This document shows, piece by piece, positions 13,054 to 21,200 of a DNA stretch of 64,000 nt. Source of the DNA: Escherichia phage vB_ESM-pEJ01. Every line of letters begins with the position of its first letter. The first letter of the stretch is position 1. The translations under genes were made by a program, and so were the position numbers. The notes under the pieces were generated by a model. The model made no database searches. It was not told the DNA's origin and was given only the letters and a program-made list of their open reading frames with translations. Location: the sequence record OP114734.1; one strand, given 5' to 3'.

Positions 13054-14028
13054 TTACATCCCTAACAGAGCGTCAAGATCATCCAGATCAGAAGCGGAGG
13101 AAGTACCGCCACCCAGGTCCAGAGATGCCATCAGGTCATCAGCGGAAGAACTCGACGCTGCGATAGCTGCGGTAGAAACAGACGCGGCGATAGCTGAGGT
13201 AGTGCCAGCATCGAATGCATTCATCTGTGCGTCAAAATCGTCAAGCTGGCTGTTAATCGCTGCCGCAGCACTGGAAGCCGCCGCACCAGCTACCATAGAA
13301 ACGCCCATAGTTTTCTTAAATTTGGTTTCCAGTTCATCGAACGGTTTAAACTGGCTAGGCGCTACAATCTCACCCAGATCAACCATGTTTTCCATCAGAT
13401 ATTTCTGATATGCTTCGTCTTCAATCTTCGGAAGCTGTGATTGCTGCATGAAACGAGAATCATCATAGTTCTGGTGTTTATCAACCTTCTTAGCTTTCAG
13501 GAGGAAGTTAGCACCGGAGAACACACAAGTTACATCTACAGGAACTTCGCCCATATCGGTATTCACGTTCACCATTGCAACGATCTTATCATAAATTTTC
13601 TGACCGAAGCGGAATTTGAATACATTACCTTCATTTTCTGGTGCTTGAGGATCTTTCAGTACCAGAATATTTGCGTAGTAAGAGGCTTTACGCTTAATCA
13701 GTTGCCATTCGGTTTTATCGGTATTGTACAGGTCTTTTTCGTTAATATATTTGCACACAGGGCAAGAATCAAAATCACCGTGGGTGCTTGAGCAGTTTTC
13801 CCAATACCATTTACCATTAACTTTGAAGGAATGGTTTACCAGTTTCACAATCGGCAGACCGTCTTCTGTCTTAGACGGCAGGAAGCGAATCAGGGCTTCA
13901 CCGTTACCTGCTGCATCAGTCTTAATCTTCCACTCTTTCGGATCTTCTTTGGAGAAACCGTTGCCACCTTTCAGTGCGGCCAGTTGAGCTTGCAGTTTGG
14001 AAGAATCTTGACGACGAAACATGTTCAT
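13054..14028 (-). CDS. 32: single-stranded DNA-binding protein gp32
   Basis: 324 aa; GNGEALIRFLPSK, WYWENCSSTHGDFDSCPVC zinc site and acidic Ala/Ser-rich C-tail match remembered T4 gp32. Confidence 0.93.
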   Translation of the reverse strand: MNMFRRQDSSKLQAQLAALKGGNGFSKEDPKEWKIKTDAAGNGEALIRFLPSKTEDGLPIVKLVNHSFKVNGKWYWENCSSTHGDFDSCPVCKYINEKDLYNTDKTEWQLIKRKASYYANILVLKDPQAPENEGNVFKFRFGQKIYDKIVAMVNVNTDMGEVPVDVTCVFSGANFLLKAKKVDKHQNYDDSRFMQQSQLPKIEDEAYQKYLMENMVDLGEIVAPSQFKPFDELETKFKKTMGVSMVAGAAASSAAAAINSQLDDFDAQMNAFDAGTTSAIAASVSTAAIAASSSSADDLMASLDLGGGTSSASDLDDLDALLGM

Positions 14029-14088: not shown

Positions 14089-14685
14089 TTAATTGCTTGT
14101 CAATACTTTATCAATTATATCTAACAGTTTTGGCTTTCTATTTTCAAATTCTAACATCTCTTCGGGAGAAATGTCAACTACTTCTGTTTTGTTGAAAAAG
14201 TTTGGGTCTATAGCATCAGCAACAAAGTTTCTCGCAAGTGCTGCCGCTTTCTCATGAACATATATTCCCAAATATATCAACTTCTTTCTTTCGACCTGAA
14301 TATTGGCAACATATTTACCATCTCGTTTATAAAGACTAACACCGATATATTCAGACGATCGACCTTTCTGTTTACCCATATTTCTTGAGTTTTGTTGCTC
14401 GTTCGCATCTCTCAAGTTTTCAATCCGATTATCTGTTATAATTCGGTTAACATGGTCAACGTATTTTGGCATGTATCCATGATGCATAAAGAAAATTATT
14501 CTATGCTCTTTATGATGTTTACCATCGATACACACCAATCTGTATCCATGACTAGGATTAACTCCACCCGCTCTAGATCCGACTTTATGCTTTCGGTTTG
14601 TCGATATCTTGCGAATCAGCTTACCGTTATCATATTTAAAGAGTTCATGACAACGAGCATACAATTCAGGATCATATGTTTTCAC
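14089..14685 (-). mobile_element. freestanding HNH homing endonuclease with AP2-like DNA-binding domain
   Basis: 198 aa; HNH core ...KEHRIIFFMHHGYMPKYVDHVNRIITDNRIENLRDANEQQNSRN followed by YIGVSLYKRDGKYVANIQV AP2-like module; inserted between genes 32 and 59. Confidence 0.8.
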
Positions 14686-15349
14686 CTTTTAACCTCGATA
14701 TTTCTTTACACTCTTTAACTACTTTAACAAATAATGCTCTTGCTTTTGCGGCGTCAATAACAAGTAGTTTCTTGTACGCCTTCATTTTAACACTATAAGT
14801 TTGCCAAATCAAGTCTTTGGCTACCTTGTCGTGTGCGTCGATTATATTTAGAAAGCTATCTAACAACATAAACGACTCAAACGATATAATCCGATTTTGC
14901 AGTAGTTTAAAGATACCGCTAGTTTCGGTTGCGGGATTGTATGTAATTAGCTCTTTAAGAGTAACCCCGCGTTTCTCTGAGAAGTATACCAGACTTTTAA
15001 TGTCATCGTCAAATCGTGTTGCTGCATCGGTTATCTTTCCTATGTATTCCATATAAAAGCCGTATGCGTCAACATCAGTGATTTCACCTACCCATGCATC
15101 GGTATTAGCTACCAGATTGCTTAGGAATAGGAAGTATAATTCTCTTAGATTGTACTTTTCCGCTAATTTTGCGAAATAATACTTATCTCTGCGTTTATTG
15201 AATGCGGCATCAGACAACCGCATCCTCCAATTGTATTTTACGCAATCATAACGCCCGTTCATGTGAGCTTTCATCATGCAATATAACATATACACAGATT
15301 TAGCATTAATTCGCATATCTGGATCTGGAGGAAGACGGTTTCTGATCAT
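14672..15349 (-). CDS. 59: helicase loader gp59
   Basis: 225 aa; KSVYMLYCMMKAHMNGRYDCVKYNW and LVANTDAWVGEI match remembered T4 gp59. Confidence 0.88.
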   Translation of the reverse strand: MIRNRLPPDPDMRINAKSVYMLYCMMKAHMNGRYDCVKYNWRMRLSDAAFNKRRDKYYFAKLAEKYNLRELYFLFLSNLVANTDAWVGEITDVDAYGFYMEYIGKITDAATRFDDDIKSLVYFSEKRGVTLKELITYNPATETSGIFKLLQNRIISFESFMLLDSFLNIIDAHDKVAKDLIWQTYSVKMKAYKKLLVIDAAKARALFVKVVKECKEISRLKGENI

Positions 15350-15358
15350 ACATACCCC

Positions 15359-15628
15359 TTAAATATCGAGAGTGTTTGTCGGTTCGTCGATCACTCCCTT
15401 CCTGAGCGTTCTATTTACTATACATTCTTGTGTGATCTTGTCAATAATGGACACCGGAATATATTTCTGATAGTGACCATATTCGATAGAGTTTTCCTCT
15501 ACAAACTGCGTTGTCGCTTCAAGATAAGTCAATCCATCTTCAACAACCAGTTTTTCGATTGCAAGACCGTTTGCTGTTTTGTTCGCGGCTTTTACCGCAT
15601 GTTCATTAAGCATTGAACACCCGATCAT
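15359..15628 (-). CDS. 33: late transcription co-activator gp33
   Basis: 89 aa; ...TYLEATTQFVEENSI... resembles remembered T4 gp33; position between 59 and dsbA. Confidence 0.55.
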   Translation of the reverse strand: MIGCSMLNEHAVKAANKTANGLAIEKLVVEDGLTYLEATTQFVEENSIEYGHYQKYIPVSIIDKITQECIVNRTLRKGVIDEPTNTLDI

Positions 15629-15881
15629 AGAGTTCTACCGCTTCATCGCGTTCTGCTTCGAAGGTTTCGCGCTGTTGCTGGTGATACAGTTTAAACAGAA
15701 TACCCCACATTTTACCGTCTACGCCCAATTCTTCTTTAGCACGCTGTTTGATCTCTTTGATCTTATCGCCGTATGCTTCTTGAATGGTTTTCTGATCGCT
15801 GGCTTCTTTAATCAGTTGTGCCAGGGTATTTCCGTGCACTGCTTCGTCAAATACTACTTTTTCTTTTTTCTGTTCAGTCAT
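15606..15881 (-). CDS. dsbA: dsDNA-binding protein DsbA
   Basis: 91 aa; FDEAVHG...LIKEASD...ELGVDGKM resembles remembered T4 DsbA; position upstream of rnh. Confidence 0.65.
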   Translation of the reverse strand: MTEQKKEKVVFDEAVHGNTLAQLIKEASDQKTIQEAYGDKIKEIKQRAKEELGVDGKMWGILFKLYHQQQRETFEAERDEAVELYDRVFNA

Positions 15882-15885
15882 AATA

Positions 15886-16482
15886 TTAACCCTCTTTCGT
15901 CATTAATTGAAAACCACGTTCAGCTTTTGAAATTTCGCTAGGACTTAAATCGTCACCCACATATTCTAGCATCATTTCTCGGATAATGTCAAGTGCTTTT
16001 TCATCACCTGATTTTAACTCGAACTTAAGTTCATAGTGAGCATCTCCCATGACTTCGCCGACTTTGCAATAATAGAAAGTGTCTTTGCACATTTCCACTA
16101 TAGCACCCTCAAGGTCAAGTGTCAATGACTTGCGGTATGTCATTACTTGCAATAAAGGAACGATAAGGTCGGAGTTTACGCCTAGACTATCAACATAGTG
16201 ATAGAAATCATCCATTGTTGAAAAAGTAATTTCTTCTCGGTTGAATAGTCCAGATTCACCATCACCTATTTTGACCATGATCAATGATCTATTAACGTCA
16301 AGTCGAGCATAAATTCCTTTTCGACGCAGTGCATGATCTTCGGTATCATAATAAAATTCGTGTTTTAGTGTGTTAGCATGATCTACGATATTGTACCCGT
16401 CATACATTGCTACCCACAAATCACAGATTGTTTCGACGCCAATTTGTGAGTGTGCATAGTATTTTAATTCAAGTTCTTTCAT
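15886..16482 (-). CDS. CYTH-like (triphosphate tunnel metalloenzyme) protein
   Basis: 198 aa; N-terminal ELELK (ExExK), YYDTEDHALRRKGIYARL, HYELKFELK acidic/basic motifs typical of the CYTH fold; no T4 counterpart at this junction. Confidence 0.45.
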   Translation of the reverse strand: MKELELKYYAHSQIGVETICDLWVAMYDGYNIVDHANTLKHEFYYDTEDHALRRKGIYARLDVNRSLIMVKIGDGESGLFNREEITFSTMDDFYHYVDSLGVNSDLIVPLLQVMTYRKSLTLDLEGAIVEMCKDTFYYCKVGEVMGDAHYELKFELKSGDEKALDIIREMMLEYVGDDLSPSEISKAERGFQLMTKEG

Positions 16483-16492
16483 ATGTCAACCC

Positions 16493-17440
16493 TTAGAACT
16501 CACCAATTTTCTGCAACATTTTAACTAACGCATTTGTTACAAAATAGTTATAAATTTTACCGCGTGGTGCTGGTTTAGATTTTTCCCATGACTCCAGAAT
16601 CTGATTCTGAATATCATCTGGGATGTAATCGAAATCAATAAGTTCGCGGTTTTCGTCAAAGCGTCGTGCTTCTTCCTCTGTCATCAAAGACTTTGGATCT
16701 TCGGCATCGAAAATTTGCTCTAACCATTTGGTCGCAATTGGTTTAGCTCGTTCCCCTTCCAGTCGTGAGATAATGAAATCACTACGGCACTTGACAGAAG
16801 CTACACCGTCTTTTGCGTCACCCTTAACACATTTTACCATAAGGTCTTTGTAAGGGCTACCATATTTGCATTTCTTCCATGCTTTCTGTACTGGCGCCCA
16901 CTGTTTCACGTTTTTGTATTTGTGCAACTGTGTGTAGTCACCATCGCCGGAGTTGATCAGCACCTGACGACCTTCTACAGAAAACTTTTTAGTTAACACA
17001 GCGATTATATCATCTGCCTCAACTTTGTCAACCTTAATAACGTGATAAGGCATGTTCTCTTTAAACTCTTCGGTGATCTTATTGATCGCGGCAAAGATCA
17101 TCTCCCAATCACGCGGATCTGCGTCTCGTTTTTCCTTACGGTTGCGTTTATAGTAAGGGGCGATATCACGTCGCCAGTAACCTTTACTTGAATCAAAAGC
17201 AAGTACCGTAATTGGGTATTGTTCTTTGAATTTTGTCATATTATAACGCATGGTGTCAAGGATAAGATGACGGATCATGCCTTCATTAATAGGATCTTCC
17301 GGTTTAAAGGTATGCGAGATAGTAGCAATCATAAGCTGCGACATATCAATCAAATGCACACCTTCCGGTAGTTTATCTTCTGGATCATCGAAGAAATCAT
17401 TAAGTGTAGCGGTAGTTTTTGTAAACGGGTTATACGTCAT
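16493..17440 (-). CDS. rnh: RNase H (FEN-like 5'-3' exonuclease)
   Basis: 315 aa; colinear with remembered T4 RNase H (GYWRRD, YKKNR, HLILD, KGDKKDNVASVK-like, RGKIYNYF...EF end). Confidence 0.9.
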   Translation of the reverse strand: MTYNPFTKTTATLNDFFDDPEDKLPEGVHLIDMSQLMIATISHTFKPEDPINEGMIRHLILDTMRYNMTKFKEQYPITVLAFDSSKGYWRRDIAPYYKRNRKEKRDADPRDWEMIFAAINKITEEFKENMPYHVIKVDKVEADDIIAVLTKKFSVEGRQVLINSGDGDYTQLHKYKNVKQWAPVQKAWKKCKYGSPYKDLMVKCVKGDAKDGVASVKCRSDFIISRLEGERAKPIATKWLEQIFDAEDPKSLMTEEEARRFDENRELIDFDYIPDDIQNQILESWEKSKPAPRGKIYNYFVTNALVKMLQKIGEF

Positions 17441-17442
17441 AA

Positions 17443-17628
17443 TTAAGTTCTCTCCACTCTCACAACAACATATTCGCCAAACGAGTTAGATACTTCACGA
17501 TCATACCCGTACTTCTCCATAACTCGCAGAATTGCATTGTTTAGTTCTGCGCGAAAATAATTATAATCCTTATCAGGGATTCTGTCAACTACCCATTTTG
17601 CACCATCAGACAAATCAAATTTAACCAT
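17443..17628 (-). CDS. hypothetical small protein
   Basis: 61 aa track ORF directly upstream of rnh in the same orientation. Confidence 0.35.
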   Translation of the reverse strand: MVKFDLSDGAKWVVDRIPDKDYNYFRAELNNAILRVMEKYGYDREVSNSFGEYVVVRVERT

Positions 17629-17634
17629 AATATA

Positions 17635-18216
17635 TCATCCTCTTTTTGGAAAATTTAAATAAGCATACTCGCCAACTATTTCATGTGCTGCACGGTCATA
17701 AGCCTTAGCCGCCTCAACTTCTGTCTCAAAGTATCCTAGATGTATATTCTTTCGATTGATAACAATATACGCCTTCCACGGCTTTTTCTTGCTTGGTGAT
17801 AATGATACACCTTTATATTTGCTATGGCAAGCCTTTTTCTTTGAGACGTTAAACTGATTTTGCTGTTCGGTTGCTTCTCTCATGTTTGACGGTCTATTGT
17901 TAGTTTTGTCTTGGTCTATGTGATCTATTCGTTCAACCTGAGTACCATACTCTAAAAACCAGACAACTCTATGTACAAACAGATTAAGTTTATGACCATT
18001 GTTGTAAAATGTAAAGTATAAATATCCTTCTTTATGGAGACATACCCTTACCACATCACCTTTTTTGTATATGGACCCTTCTTTTCGGAATCCAGCAGCT
18101 ACAGAATCCTTTAAATGGTATAATATTCCATCGACATGATAGAATCTACCTTTTATCGCTTTCTGTGTCTCGATATCCCAAAATTTTGTTTTTGCCACAA
18201 CAAACACCTCACACAA
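17635..18216 (-). mobile_element. freestanding HNH-AP2 homing endonuclease
   Basis: 193 aa; VVWFLEYGTQVERIDHIDQDKTNNRPSNMREATEQQN HNH core plus YKGVSLSP...WKAYI AP2-like domain; paralog of 39976..40539. Confidence 0.8.
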
Positions 18217-18250: not shown

Positions 18251-21200
18251 ATGGCAGATTTTTCTCAACATTTCAAGGCCACCTTTGGCTTTGACGCTGG
18301 TAATGAAAAGGTCGTCAATGTAGCATACGCAGATAAAAACACATCAACGGATGCGGTCAACGTTGAATTTTTCAATTACCATAATGGTATTACTCAGTAT
18401 GACACAACTCGCGGTTATGATCAATACGGAACTACAATCTATCAAAACCGTCCGTATTATGCAAAAGAAGATATCACAAAGCCAGCAGGTGATTTTGACC
18501 CGACTAAATGGCAAGCACTGCGCACGGACCCACGTTGGGATTATGTTGCAGCAACTTCCGGCGATACTCCTTTAAAGTCTGGTGATTATATCGCAGCGGA
18601 CTGTCAGTTTGCAAACTTGACATTCTCAATGCCTACTAATCCGGCAGAGGGAGACACTATAACAGTAAAAGATATCGGTGGCAAGTGTGGTGTTAACGAA
18701 TTATCGTTCTTGAGTACAGGACATGAGTTTTACCATAACGGTAATGTGTACAACCGAAAATGGTATTGCACTACCCCGTATGCAATGAACTATTTCATCT
18801 TTGTTCGTAATCGTTGGCATGTTTATCAGACAGGAACAGAGCCACGCGGTGTGTACGCACAGCCAGCGATTGATGCTATTCAAATGCAGAATGGTGATCA
18901 GGTATTTCGTCGTAGTTCGTTGGGTAATATTACCTTAGTGCTTCCTAAGTTTGCCAACAATGGCGACATGATCCAGACTACAGACCTTGACGGATTAACC
19001 GCAACCAACCACGTTACGGTTAAAGTTCATGAGCACGCAGAAGAACAATCAATTGGCACGTCCGGTCTAAAAGAGATTATCGGTAAGCGTAGCGGTCATG
19101 GTGTATTCATCTTTGACAAGACGGAAAACTTATGGCGTTTGTGGGATGGTGATCAGTCTGTTCGTCTTAAACCGATCATCGATGACACTCGCTTGCAACC
19201 TAATAGCTATGTTGCTGTATTTGGTGATCGTGATGTTACTCTGACGCTGCCGACCAATGTCGAGCCGGGTGATCGTATTCAAGTTTCTATGCAGTATATG
19301 AACGGAAACCAGAATTGCCGTATTATCACCGCCACAGAGGATACAAAAATCCTTATGCAGAAAAACATGGTTCAGTTTCCTAAGCGTAGCGAGTACCCAT
19401 TCAATGGGACCGATACATGGACGGGAGTATCTGAATTGTCTTTCAACGCTGCAAATGATTATGTACCTTATGTGGAGTTCTCTTATTCAGAAGGTGATGA
19501 TGGTAAGAAATACTGGTTGGTGGCACATGCTCACCCGATTGTAGAACGAGTAGATCCGACTCGTAAAGATCGTGTTGGTGTAATTGCACTGGCTACCCAA
19601 ACTGAAACGAATAAAAACCATGAAGAGAATCCTAGCGACGAAGTTGCAGTAACACCAAAAATGCTGGCTAATAAAACCGCCAACGAAACTCGACGCGGTA
19701 TTGCTCGCATTGCGACTCAAGCGGAAACGCATCAAGATACTGGTTCCAACTTCCTGGATGATGTTATCGTTACGCCTAAAAAGTTAAATGACTGTGTTGC
19801 TACCGAAGCCCGTCGTGGTGTGATGGAAATTGCAACCCAGCACGAAACCAATGAAGGTTTAGACGATACCCGCGCTATTACTCCTAAGAAATTAGAAGAA
19901 CGTCGCGCTTCCGAAGATCTCGCTGGTATTGCTGAAATTGTTCAGGCTGGCGGCAGTGCTGCCGCTCGACGTGGCGAAGCTGGTACAGGGATCTATAACA
20001 TCAATGACCATGCTAAAATTGTTACGCCAAAAAACATCAACGAAGTCAAGGCGACCGAAACTTCCCGTGGTGTTGGCTATCTGGCAACTGACGCGGAAGT
20101 GCAAGGGGCTACAGAATCAACCCCGCAAGATGCTTTACTCATCACGACTCGCACGCTAACGAAACGTACTGCTACCGAATCGCGCACTGGTATCGCTGAA
20201 ATTGCAACTCAGGAAGAAACAAACTTAGGTCAAAGTGATAACCATATCATCACGCCTAAAAAGCTGCATACTCGCCGAGCAACGGAAACTTTACACGGTT
20301 TAGCAGAAATTGCAACTCAACCGGAGTTTGACGCAGGTCGTGACGATTCTCGCATTTCTACCCCATTGAAGATTAAAACCTTCTTTGAGAATGCACAGCG
20401 TTTGAAAGTAGATCCGACTCAGGGGCTTAACCTTACTGGTGATTTGTGGCAAGGTATCATGATCAGCGGTCTGGATGCAACCGAAGACACAAAAGGTGTC
20501 GCTAAAGTTGCGACTACTCAGCTTACTGACGCTGGTCAAGATGATACTACAATCATCACGCCTAAAAAGCTGCAAGGCAAGAAGGCCACCGAAGGTAAAG
20601 AAGGCATTATCCGAGTTGGTACTCAAGCCGAAACCGTGGCTGGTATTATGGACAATGTAGCAATTTCTCCGAAGAACTTCAAATATGTTGTTCAGACAGA
20701 GGATACATGGAAAGCAACCGAAGCGCGTCGTGGCTTCTTGAAAGTTGCTACTCAGGAAAACTGTTTTGTTGGTGATAATCTGCAAGGTTCTACTCAAGAA
20801 CTAGGAAACTACCAGCATGACGGAATTGCTGTTACCCCTAAAGGATTAAACTACGCACTTGCTAATTTCTTACCTAAGATGGCAACCGCTCAGAATAGTT
20901 TGAAATTAGGTAACGTAGAGGCCGCTAAATGGGCGCGTAGAGACATTGACCAGACCATAGAGAGCAATTACACGTTTAATAAAAACGTTAACGTGAAGGG
21001 CGATTTAGAGTGCTTAAAATCAGGTTCCTTTGAAACTCTGTCTGTGACTAAGAACTCGACCGATGTTCCGAGTAATGGTCATCTGGTGTTGGGTGAGCGT
21101 GGAGTTGACGGTCACACCGGAATTACTCTGCATGGCACAACCGCATCGGAAGGCATGAAAAACTCTTGGTCTATTATCGTTGGTGGTACTGGAACAGCGC

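Follow-up and report, generated by a model that had tools for sequence, protein, structure and literature searches.

The genome of Escherichia phage vB_ESM-pEJ01 (hereafter pEJ01) was analysed over a stretch of 64,000 nucleotides (nt) of the record OP114734.1, referred to here as the window, in which a minus-strand open reading frame (ORF) of 198 amino acids (aa) lies between the genes dsbA and rnh. Judged from profile searches and a structure model, this ORF is a genuine CYTH protein, that is, a triphosphate tunnel metalloenzyme (TTM), which belongs to the lineage of Escherichia coli YgiF and comprises the CYTH domain only, without CHAD. By analogy to YgiF, we put the probability at roughly 60% that it acts as a Mg2+/Mn2+-dependent hydrolase removing the terminal phosphate of a small triphosphate, probably expressed along with the replication genes; that it is a TTM hydrolase and not a cyclase seems highly probable. 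The gene adds an uncharacterised phage branch to an enzyme family that is already known, and its assignment to the CYTH domain has been published before.

Fold, family placement and catalytic residues

By searching Pfam, the CYTH profile (PF01928) was matched over profile positions 2–178 of 179 with 23.2 bits (E = 6.7e-5), a score equal to the gathering cutoff of 23.2. A single-sequence phmmer search of 5.8 billion proteins gave a match at 3e-5 to P0044, a Pfam-CYTH-annotated protein on a 1-kb metagenomic contig, and P0044 in turn aligns without gaps to the Caulobacter CYTH protein P0047. The family profile matched hundreds of bacterial CYTH and CYTH-CHAD proteins, many of them at 1e-27 to 1e-13; at the level of sequence, the resemblance is thus well beyond chance. 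Against the PDB, single-sequence phmmer returned noise only and a profile was required: with the phage-only profile, the sole chain at E ≤ 1 was that of E. coli YgiF (5A60; 2.6e-5, covering the whole CYTH domain), and with the mixed profile YgiF was matched at 2e-50.

The AlphaFold2 (AF2) model, built from a 68-sequence alignment, had a mean predicted local distance difference test score (pLDDT) of 94.5 and consists of eight long β-strands and a C-terminal helix, so that the eight-stranded β-barrel tunnel is predicted to be present. When the PDB was searched with this model by Foldseek, YgiF ranked first (E = 5e-13, query TM-score (TMq) = 0.78), and all other strong matches were TTMs as well, YgiF being followed by plant TTM3, Bacillus CYTH proteins, SaTTM and thiamine triphosphatase (ThTPase), whereas the class IV cyclases (CyaB) appeared at ranks 26–28 with TMq of ~0.5. 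Together, the Pfam score, the phage-only profile, the model and the Foldseek ranking bear out the CYTH/TTM identity that a preliminary description of this stretch had proposed.

YgiF (PDB 5A60/5A61), a CYTH + CHAD inorganic triphosphatase of 433 aa, is the best match of the phage protein in both sequence and structure, although the two share only ~23–28% identity. Residues were mapped to YgiF by MAFFT, in which the register of β3 was set by the ungapped anchor YYDTxDxxLRRxG, and their roles were taken from the structures and mutagenesis of YgiF and AtTTM3 (Martinez et al. 2015). The N-terminal ExExK signature (in MKELELKY; E3-L-E5-L-K7) and the segment YYDTEDHALRRKGIYARL, both pointed out in the preliminary description, are indeed present in the translated ORF. 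E3, E5 and K7 correspond to E4, E6 and K8 of YgiF, of which E4 and E6 are metal-2 ligands; R60 to the catalytic R56; K71 to the substrate-binding K69; R82 and E84 to the conserved pair R81 and E83; and E151, position 153 and E155 to E158 (conserved β8 Glu), E160 (metal-1 ligand) and E162 (metal-2 ligand), respectively. A 'plug' helix of the form SKAxRG is also common to both. E3, E5, K7, R60, R82, E84, R117, D134, E151, E155, K186 and R189 were invariant in the 68 sequences, and K186, R189 and G190 across phage and bacterial YgiF-like sequences. All residues mapped to YgiF were invariant in phage and bacteria, with the exception of K71/K69, which MAFFT placed one column apart, and of position 153 in the window. 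The register that equates R60 with R56 is favoured by the ungapped anchor.

The closest non-phage sequences are stand-alone bacterial CYTH proteins (~190–205 aa, e.g. P0047 of Caulobacter segnis), which have the same single-domain size as the phage protein, are 29–32% identical to it (profile E = 1e-27) and align with it ungapped over the segment YxDTxDxALRRxG. They are chromosomal and, unlike the phage protein, keep the small-xRxR motif and the small β7 residues; in databases they are labelled 'CYTH domain-containing protein' or 'triphosphatase', and the gene neighbourhood of the Caulobacter relative was uninformative. A recent capture of ygiF from the E. coli host was ruled out by the low identity to YgiF and by the nearest relatives being alphaproteobacterial stand-alone CYTH proteins.

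Tunnel departures and the Lys residue at position 153

Vogt et al. (2021, PMC8233210) described CYTH cluster 1, the YgiF type; of its features, the pEJ01 protein has YgiF as nearest relative, whereas CHAD and the small-x-R-x-R motif are absent. No match to the CHAD profile PF05235 was found in the ORF, and the protein ends at residue 198 directly after the plug helix. In β3, the phage sequences read Y58-A-R60-L-D62 where 53/53 bacterial relatives have small-L-R-V-R, and the phage clade has Asp throughout at position 62, where all 53 carry Arg (YgiF R58). Y58 replaces the small residue (Gly54 in YgiF) two positions before the catalytic Arg, which is the place of the thiazole-stacking Trp/Tyr defining ThTPases (Vogt et al. 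2021, PMC8233210). Y58 is not invariant, however, with Val taking its place in P0121 and Ser in P0029, and is thus not essential. Further departures are F136 and Y138 in β7 in place of the G/A and V/I of bacterial relatives and YgiF, K157 in place of L164 of YgiF, and a β3-β4 hairpin that is two residues shorter than that of YgiF. The changes at Y58, D62, F136 and Y138 suggest, from sequence, a pocket for an organic group.

One departure from YgiF, at the equivalent of Glu160, is peculiar to pEJ01. The peptide HYELKFELK, which the preliminary description had read as an ExE-type acidic motif, is present in β8, but an intact ExE is not: the family has ELEFELK, and pEJ01 reads K153-F-E155. Glu was found at position 153 in 65/66 distinct clade sequences and in all 53 bacterial relatives, pEJ01 alone having Lys, and its AAG codon differs from GAG by a single G-to-A change. 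The protein of phage Whisky differs from that of pEJ01 only by G74S and K153E, and the exact pEJ01 protein (UYE95265.1) was found on no contig other than that of pEJ01 (OP114734). The first Glu of ExE is the central metal-1 ligand conserved family-wide (Vogt et al. 2021, PMC8233210; Martinez et al. 2015), and E160A impairs YgiF (Martinez et al. 2015). Because the metal-1 Glu is replaced by Lys, the pEJ01 copy is probably catalytically impaired through E153K. pEJ01, whose genome was assembled by SPAdes from Illumina reads, is a viable lytic phage with a broad host range; since it is viable with K153, growth on laboratory hosts does not appear to require the activity.

Locus, distribution and allelic divergence

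The gene, its motifs and its neighbours are located in Table 1. In T4 (NC_000866), dsbA and rnh are separated by a gap of 8 nt with no intervening gene, so the preliminary description was correct in treating the CYTH gene as an extra one in a slot that is free in T4. In pEJ01, the CYTH gene starts 10 nt past the stop of rnh, and the ATG of dsbA follows 4 nt past the CYTH stop. The GC content at third codon positions (GC3) is 32% in the CYTH gene, 30–32% in accessory and mobile genes nearby and 40–41% in rnh, dsbA and gp33.

Table 1. Positions of the CYTH/TTM gene, its motifs, putative expression signals and surrounding genes in the window
Feature	Position	Strand	Basis and remarks
gp32	13054-14028		Pfam
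HNH-AP2 endonuclease, first	14089-14685	-	Pfam
gp59	14672-15349		Pfam
gp33	15359-15628		Pfam
dsbA	15606-15881		Pfam Phage_DsbA, 5e-22
CYTH-dsbA junction	15882..15897	-	AAA GAG GGT TAA holds the GAGGG Shine-Dalgarno-like sequence of dsbA
CYTH/TTM gene	15886..16482	-	ATG start, TAA stop (ORF listing); stand-alone; ortholog of RB49p245 / RB49ORF244c / phi1 ORF245; identical to UYE95265.1 of vB_ESM-pEJ01
C-terminal 'plug' helix	15913..15930	-	codons 185-190, S-K-A-E-R-G; alignment, AF2 model
Promoter-like site (TTGACA, 18-nt spacer, TG-n-TAGAAT)	15963..15992	-	in conserved CYTH 3' end, upstream of dsbA; consensus match
Divergence hot-spot, CYTH gene interior	16000..16440	-	sliding-window identity
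β8 motif	16012..16032	-	codons 151-157, E-L-K-F-E-L-K; family consensus E-L-E-F-E-L-K
Codon 153, AAG (Lys)	16024-16026	-	GAG or GAA (Glu) in every other family member
β3 motif	16297..16311	-	codons 58-62, Y-A-R-L-D; alignment
ExExK motif	16462..16476	-	codons 3-7, E-L-E-L-K; invariant in 68/68 aligned sequences
rnh-CYTH junction, 10 nt	16483..16492	-	TAAGGGTTGACATATG; AAGGG Shine-Dalgarno-like sequence after rnh stop; sequence read directly
rnh (T4-type RNase H)	16493-17440		Pfam RNaseH_C, 3e-39
Promoter-like site, perfect σ70 type (TTGACA, 16-nt spacer, TG-TATAAT)	17004..17031	-	within rnh, ~520 nt upstream of CYTH start; consensus match; candidate only
61-aa ORF	17443-17628	-	conserved; PHROG 3594, 'unknown function'; RB49p247
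HNH-AP2 endonuclease, second	17635-18216	-	Pfam
gp34	from 18251		Pfam

On the coding strand between 15300 and 18300 (minus), 19 σ70-type promoter-like sites were found where 8.9 +/- 3.2 were expected, six of them with a perfect TTGACA (17588..17560, 17031..17004, 16489..16461, 16125..16097, 15992..15963 and 15444..15417). Most of the promoter-like sites are kept across Krischviruses, but the regions in which they lie are conserved anyway. The site within rnh is a candidate for an early promoter only. No match to the T4 late-promoter motif TATAAATA was found near the CYTH gene, and the 2 matches in the window are below chance. From its position, the CYTH gene is probably co-transcribed with the block of replication and late-transcription genes.

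The window region is 95–98% identical to RB49-like phages (genus Krischvirus, family Straboviridae). In a collection of 50,697 records, the CYTH gene was present in 58/58 Krischvirus records, in the same slot every time, and in no other phage; this result held with P0121, the most divergent member of the clade, as the query, and an IMG/VR scan and tblastn with P0121 gave Krischvirus loci only and no new genomic contexts. The clade is narrow, as no more than three clusters at 50% identity came out below 1e-30 when 1.84 billion representatives were searched exhaustively with HMMER; metagenomic relatives at 44–58% identity share the rnh-CYTH-dsbA slot. In Krischvirus phages, the CYTH gene is fixed as an accessory gene that is wedged in between rnh and dsbA. 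Other phages encode TTM-fold CYTH proteins too (Aeh1 ORF004c, Aeromonas phages 65.2 and D3, uncultured Caudovirales), which are 12–15% identical to the pEJ01 protein (Aeh1 ORF004c itself not compared), were not reached by sequence search with the Krischvirus family and look like independent acquisitions. NCBI also holds 'CYTH domain-containing protein [Escherichia coli]' entries on ~165 kb contigs (e.g. EHU9813697.1), and these look like whole Krischvirus genomes within E. coli assemblies and not like genes of the bacterium.

Earlier annotation of the gene is heterogeneous. The RB49 RefSeq note already reads 'similar to ... ygiF', RB49ORF244c was listed as 'CYTH domain' by Nolan et al. (2006), and several orthologs are named 'CYTH domain-containing protein' in UniProt/NCBI; the CYTH call is therefore ~20 years old, which the preliminary description had missed. 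In GenBank, orthologs are labelled 'adenylate cyclase' (MK573636, OR525698) or 'inorganic triphosphatase' (MN709127, MN894885) and mostly 'hypothetical protein', and the ORF falls into PHROG 14893, 'unknown function'. The comparison of phi1 with RB49 by Arbiol et al. (2010) does not mention it, and literature searches on CYTH/TTM with phage, anti-defence, RB49, thiamine triphosphate and defence systems returned no study of its function, the sole item found being the domain listing of 2006.

By sliding-window nucleotide comparison with seven Krischviruses, a divergence hot-spot was located in the interior of the CYTH gene, where identity fell to 75–90% with Phi1, JK32 and Brandy and to 43–57% with Skers, whereas rnh, dsbA, gp33 and gp59 were 95–100% identical in the same comparison. 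The two ends of the gene (the first ~30 nt and the last ~140 nt) were 93–100% identical. The rate of synonymous substitution (dS) was 0.31–1.26 for the CYTH gene and 0.08–0.16 for the flanking genes, and the ratio of nonsynonymous to synonymous rates (dN/dS) was 0.13–0.31 and 0–0.1 (gp59 up to 0.22), respectively, indicating that the CYTH gene is under purifying selection and not decaying. Variation was lower at strand positions predicted to face inward, as deduced from strand parity anchored on the known catalytic residues (0.47 vs ~0.9 bits, p = 1e-5). High dS, low dN/dS and the sparing of inward positions therefore point to old alleles that have kept their function and have been swapped by recombination, the breakpoints lying in the conserved ends. 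The 3' end may have been homogenised partly since it holds the ribosome-binding site of dsbA and a promoter-like element. A spurious ORF was ruled out by the dN/dS values and the conserved catalytic residues.

Other mosaic patches were observed around the module. One at the 3' end of rnh (16540-16690) is ~79–83% identical to ELT4, OZ035808, JK32 and Brandy, 83–89% to Skers and 96–100% to RB49 and Phi1, so recombination tracts also have ends shortly upstream of the CYTH gene. A gp32 patch (13400-13900) is 71–90% identical to JK32 and Brandy and 97–100% to the others, and a gp34 patch (18540-18690) is ~90% identical to most phages and 98–99% to Skers. The module is flanked by two homing-endonuclease genes with HNH and AP2 domains, whose presence differs among phages: the first, which occupies the gp32-gp59 slot and overlaps the start of gp59 by 14 nt, occurs in Skers and ELT4 and not in RB49, OZ035808, Phi1, JK32 or Brandy, and T4 has the unrelated GIY-YIG endonuclease SegG in this slot; the second occurs only in ELT4 among the seven Krischviruses compared. 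The conserved 61-aa ORF in the rnh-gp34 interval has no T4 counterpart, T4 rnh abutting the gp34 intergenic region.

Proposed reaction and alternative readings

By homology to YgiF and AtTTM3, the triphosphate group would be held centrally in the eight-stranded β-tunnel and contacted by K7, R60, K71, R82, R117 and K157 together with a Mg2+ or Mn2+ ion (metal 1) on Glu153, while a second metal on E3, E5 and E155 would activate water, leading to cleavage of the terminal phosphate. We infer this two-metal hydrolysis, presumably common to YgiF and the phage protein, because the determinants of class IV cyclases all fail, as detailed below. Tripolyphosphate (PPPi) would be the default substrate, since the nearest characterised relative cleaves it; an organic triphosphate (nucleoside triphosphate (NTP), deoxynucleoside triphosphate (dNTP) or similar) appears about equally likely in view of the clade-specific Y58, F136 and Y138 and the Arg-to-Asp change at 62.

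Several points weigh against a co-expressed YgiF-type hydrolase. The Pfam score lies exactly at the threshold and is marginal on its own, an NCBIfam scan of the ORF gave no match, and the HMMER alignment puts β3 two residues off from the MAFFT alignment. With the tunnel departures (Y58, D62, F136, Y138) and no CHAD, the substrate and even the activity could differ. Co-transcription was deduced solely from the 4–10 nt gene spacing and promoter-like motifs. Lastly, E153K could have arisen as an error of sequencing or assembly, or could be compensated by the neighbouring E151. That it represents no functional lesion, being either an error or tolerated (with Lys supplying the metal-1 charge or E151 substituting for the Glu), is in our estimation unlikely: it is a single transition in just one deposited genome and E151 lies two residues off on the same β8 face, but consensus substitution errors are rare in Illumina assemblies, and the Glu that is lost is a central metal-1 ligand, invariant in 53 sequences from bacteria and in the 65 remaining ones from phages, whose mutation in E160A impairs YgiF.

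Among alternative functions of the hydrolase, one would be counter-defence or the erasure of a stress signal, in which a host signal or immune nucleotide that bears a triphosphate (such as thiamine triphosphate (ThTP), guanosine pentaphosphate (pppGpp), a modified dNTP or a linear oligonucleotide signal with a 5'-triphosphate) would be hydrolysed and the allelic diversity would reflect an arms race. Y58 at the ThTPase thiazole-stacking position and the aromatics added by F136 and Y138 are in its favour, as are a gene interior far more diverged than the flanks (dS 0.3–1.3 vs ~0.1–0.16) in a gene nevertheless kept by all 58 genomes and a GC3 like that of nearby accessory genes. The likeness to mammalian 25-kDa ThTPase (PDB 3BHD, 5A64), which has the TTM fold, the plug helix and an aromatic residue two before the catalytic Arg, is however limited to 14–16% identity and Foldseek ranks 19–25, and of the ThTPase motif W/Y-x-R-x-R only Y58-x-R60 is present, its last Arg being Asp and Y58 itself varying in two clade members. 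Moreover, the overall dN/dS of 0.2–0.3 indicates purifying and not positive selection, the high dS fits imported old alleles better than rapid adaptive change, and a viable phage bears a probable loss-of-function allele. A PADLOC scan of the ORF gave no defence or anti-defence match and no published anti-defence role was found, so the relevance to host immunity raised in the preliminary description gained no support. We regard signal erasure as improbable on balance, and slightly more doubtful still the version, either counter-defence or host reprogramming, in which the tunnel, with Tyr at the ThTPase stacking position, Phe and Tyr added in β7 and Asp for Arg close to the gamma-phosphate, has been retuned from PPPi to an organic host signal carrying a triphosphate (such as ThTP, pppGpp or an immune nucleotide, modified or 5'-triphosphorylated) and different hosts select different ones among the old, exchanged alleles.

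Less probable again is an RNA 5'-triphosphatase acting on pppRNA ends (Okazaki primers, host or phage transcripts) in connection with the adjacent rnh. The gene does lie directly downstream of rnh in the replication block, and Cet1-type and viral capping RNA triphosphatases are TTMs that gave weak structural matches. However, no Cet1-like (PF02940) Pfam match was obtained at E ≤ 1 and capping structures rank 45th or lower with TM of ~0.43–0.46, by which membership in the Cet1 type was ruled out; T4 performs the same replication chemistry with the slot empty; the conserved plug helix closes one tunnel mouth in YgiF/ThTPase-type enzymes; and adjacency of accessory ORFs in T4-like genomes would be weak evidence for a shared function.

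Class IV cyclases are characterised by HFxxxxExExK, by a small neutral residue where other members have the central β3 Arg and by Ala instead of the second ExE Glu (Vogt et al. 2021, PMC8233210). In the phage protein, only M1-K2 precede ExExK, which leaves no room for the HF motif with ExExK at residue 3, and R60 and E155 are both invariant. A CyaB-type adenylate or nucleotidyl cyclase making a cyclic nucleotide, as the preliminary description had envisaged as one possibility, can hence be rejected as extremely improbable: CyaB (PDB 2FJT, 3N0Y, 3N10) is of the same superfamily, Pfam family and similar size, two orthologs carry the label, and a few plant TTMs have weak cyclase activity on the side, but these three determinants fail, the structural match is far poorer than that to YgiF, and the phage-only profile matched no CyaB-type PDB chain at E ≤ 1.

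To our knowledge, neither substrate nor role has been established for any CYTH/TTM enzyme encoded by a phage, and here the gene is kept universally by a therapeutically used genus (RB49-like Krischvirus), inside its core replication module. The YxRxD signature of β3, the allelic hot-spot and the natural active-site variant are new here and modestly interesting leads: the signature is a concrete handle for structure-function work, and pEJ01 with E153K provides a natural active-site variant for comparison with near-identical phages. The motif tests contradict the 'adenylate cyclase' labels in GenBank, and these should not be carried over into further annotation. If the enzyme is a tripolyphosphatase or NTPase only, it would be a minor metabolic accessory; if its substrate is a host signal, it would represent a new enzyme class for phage counter-defence.

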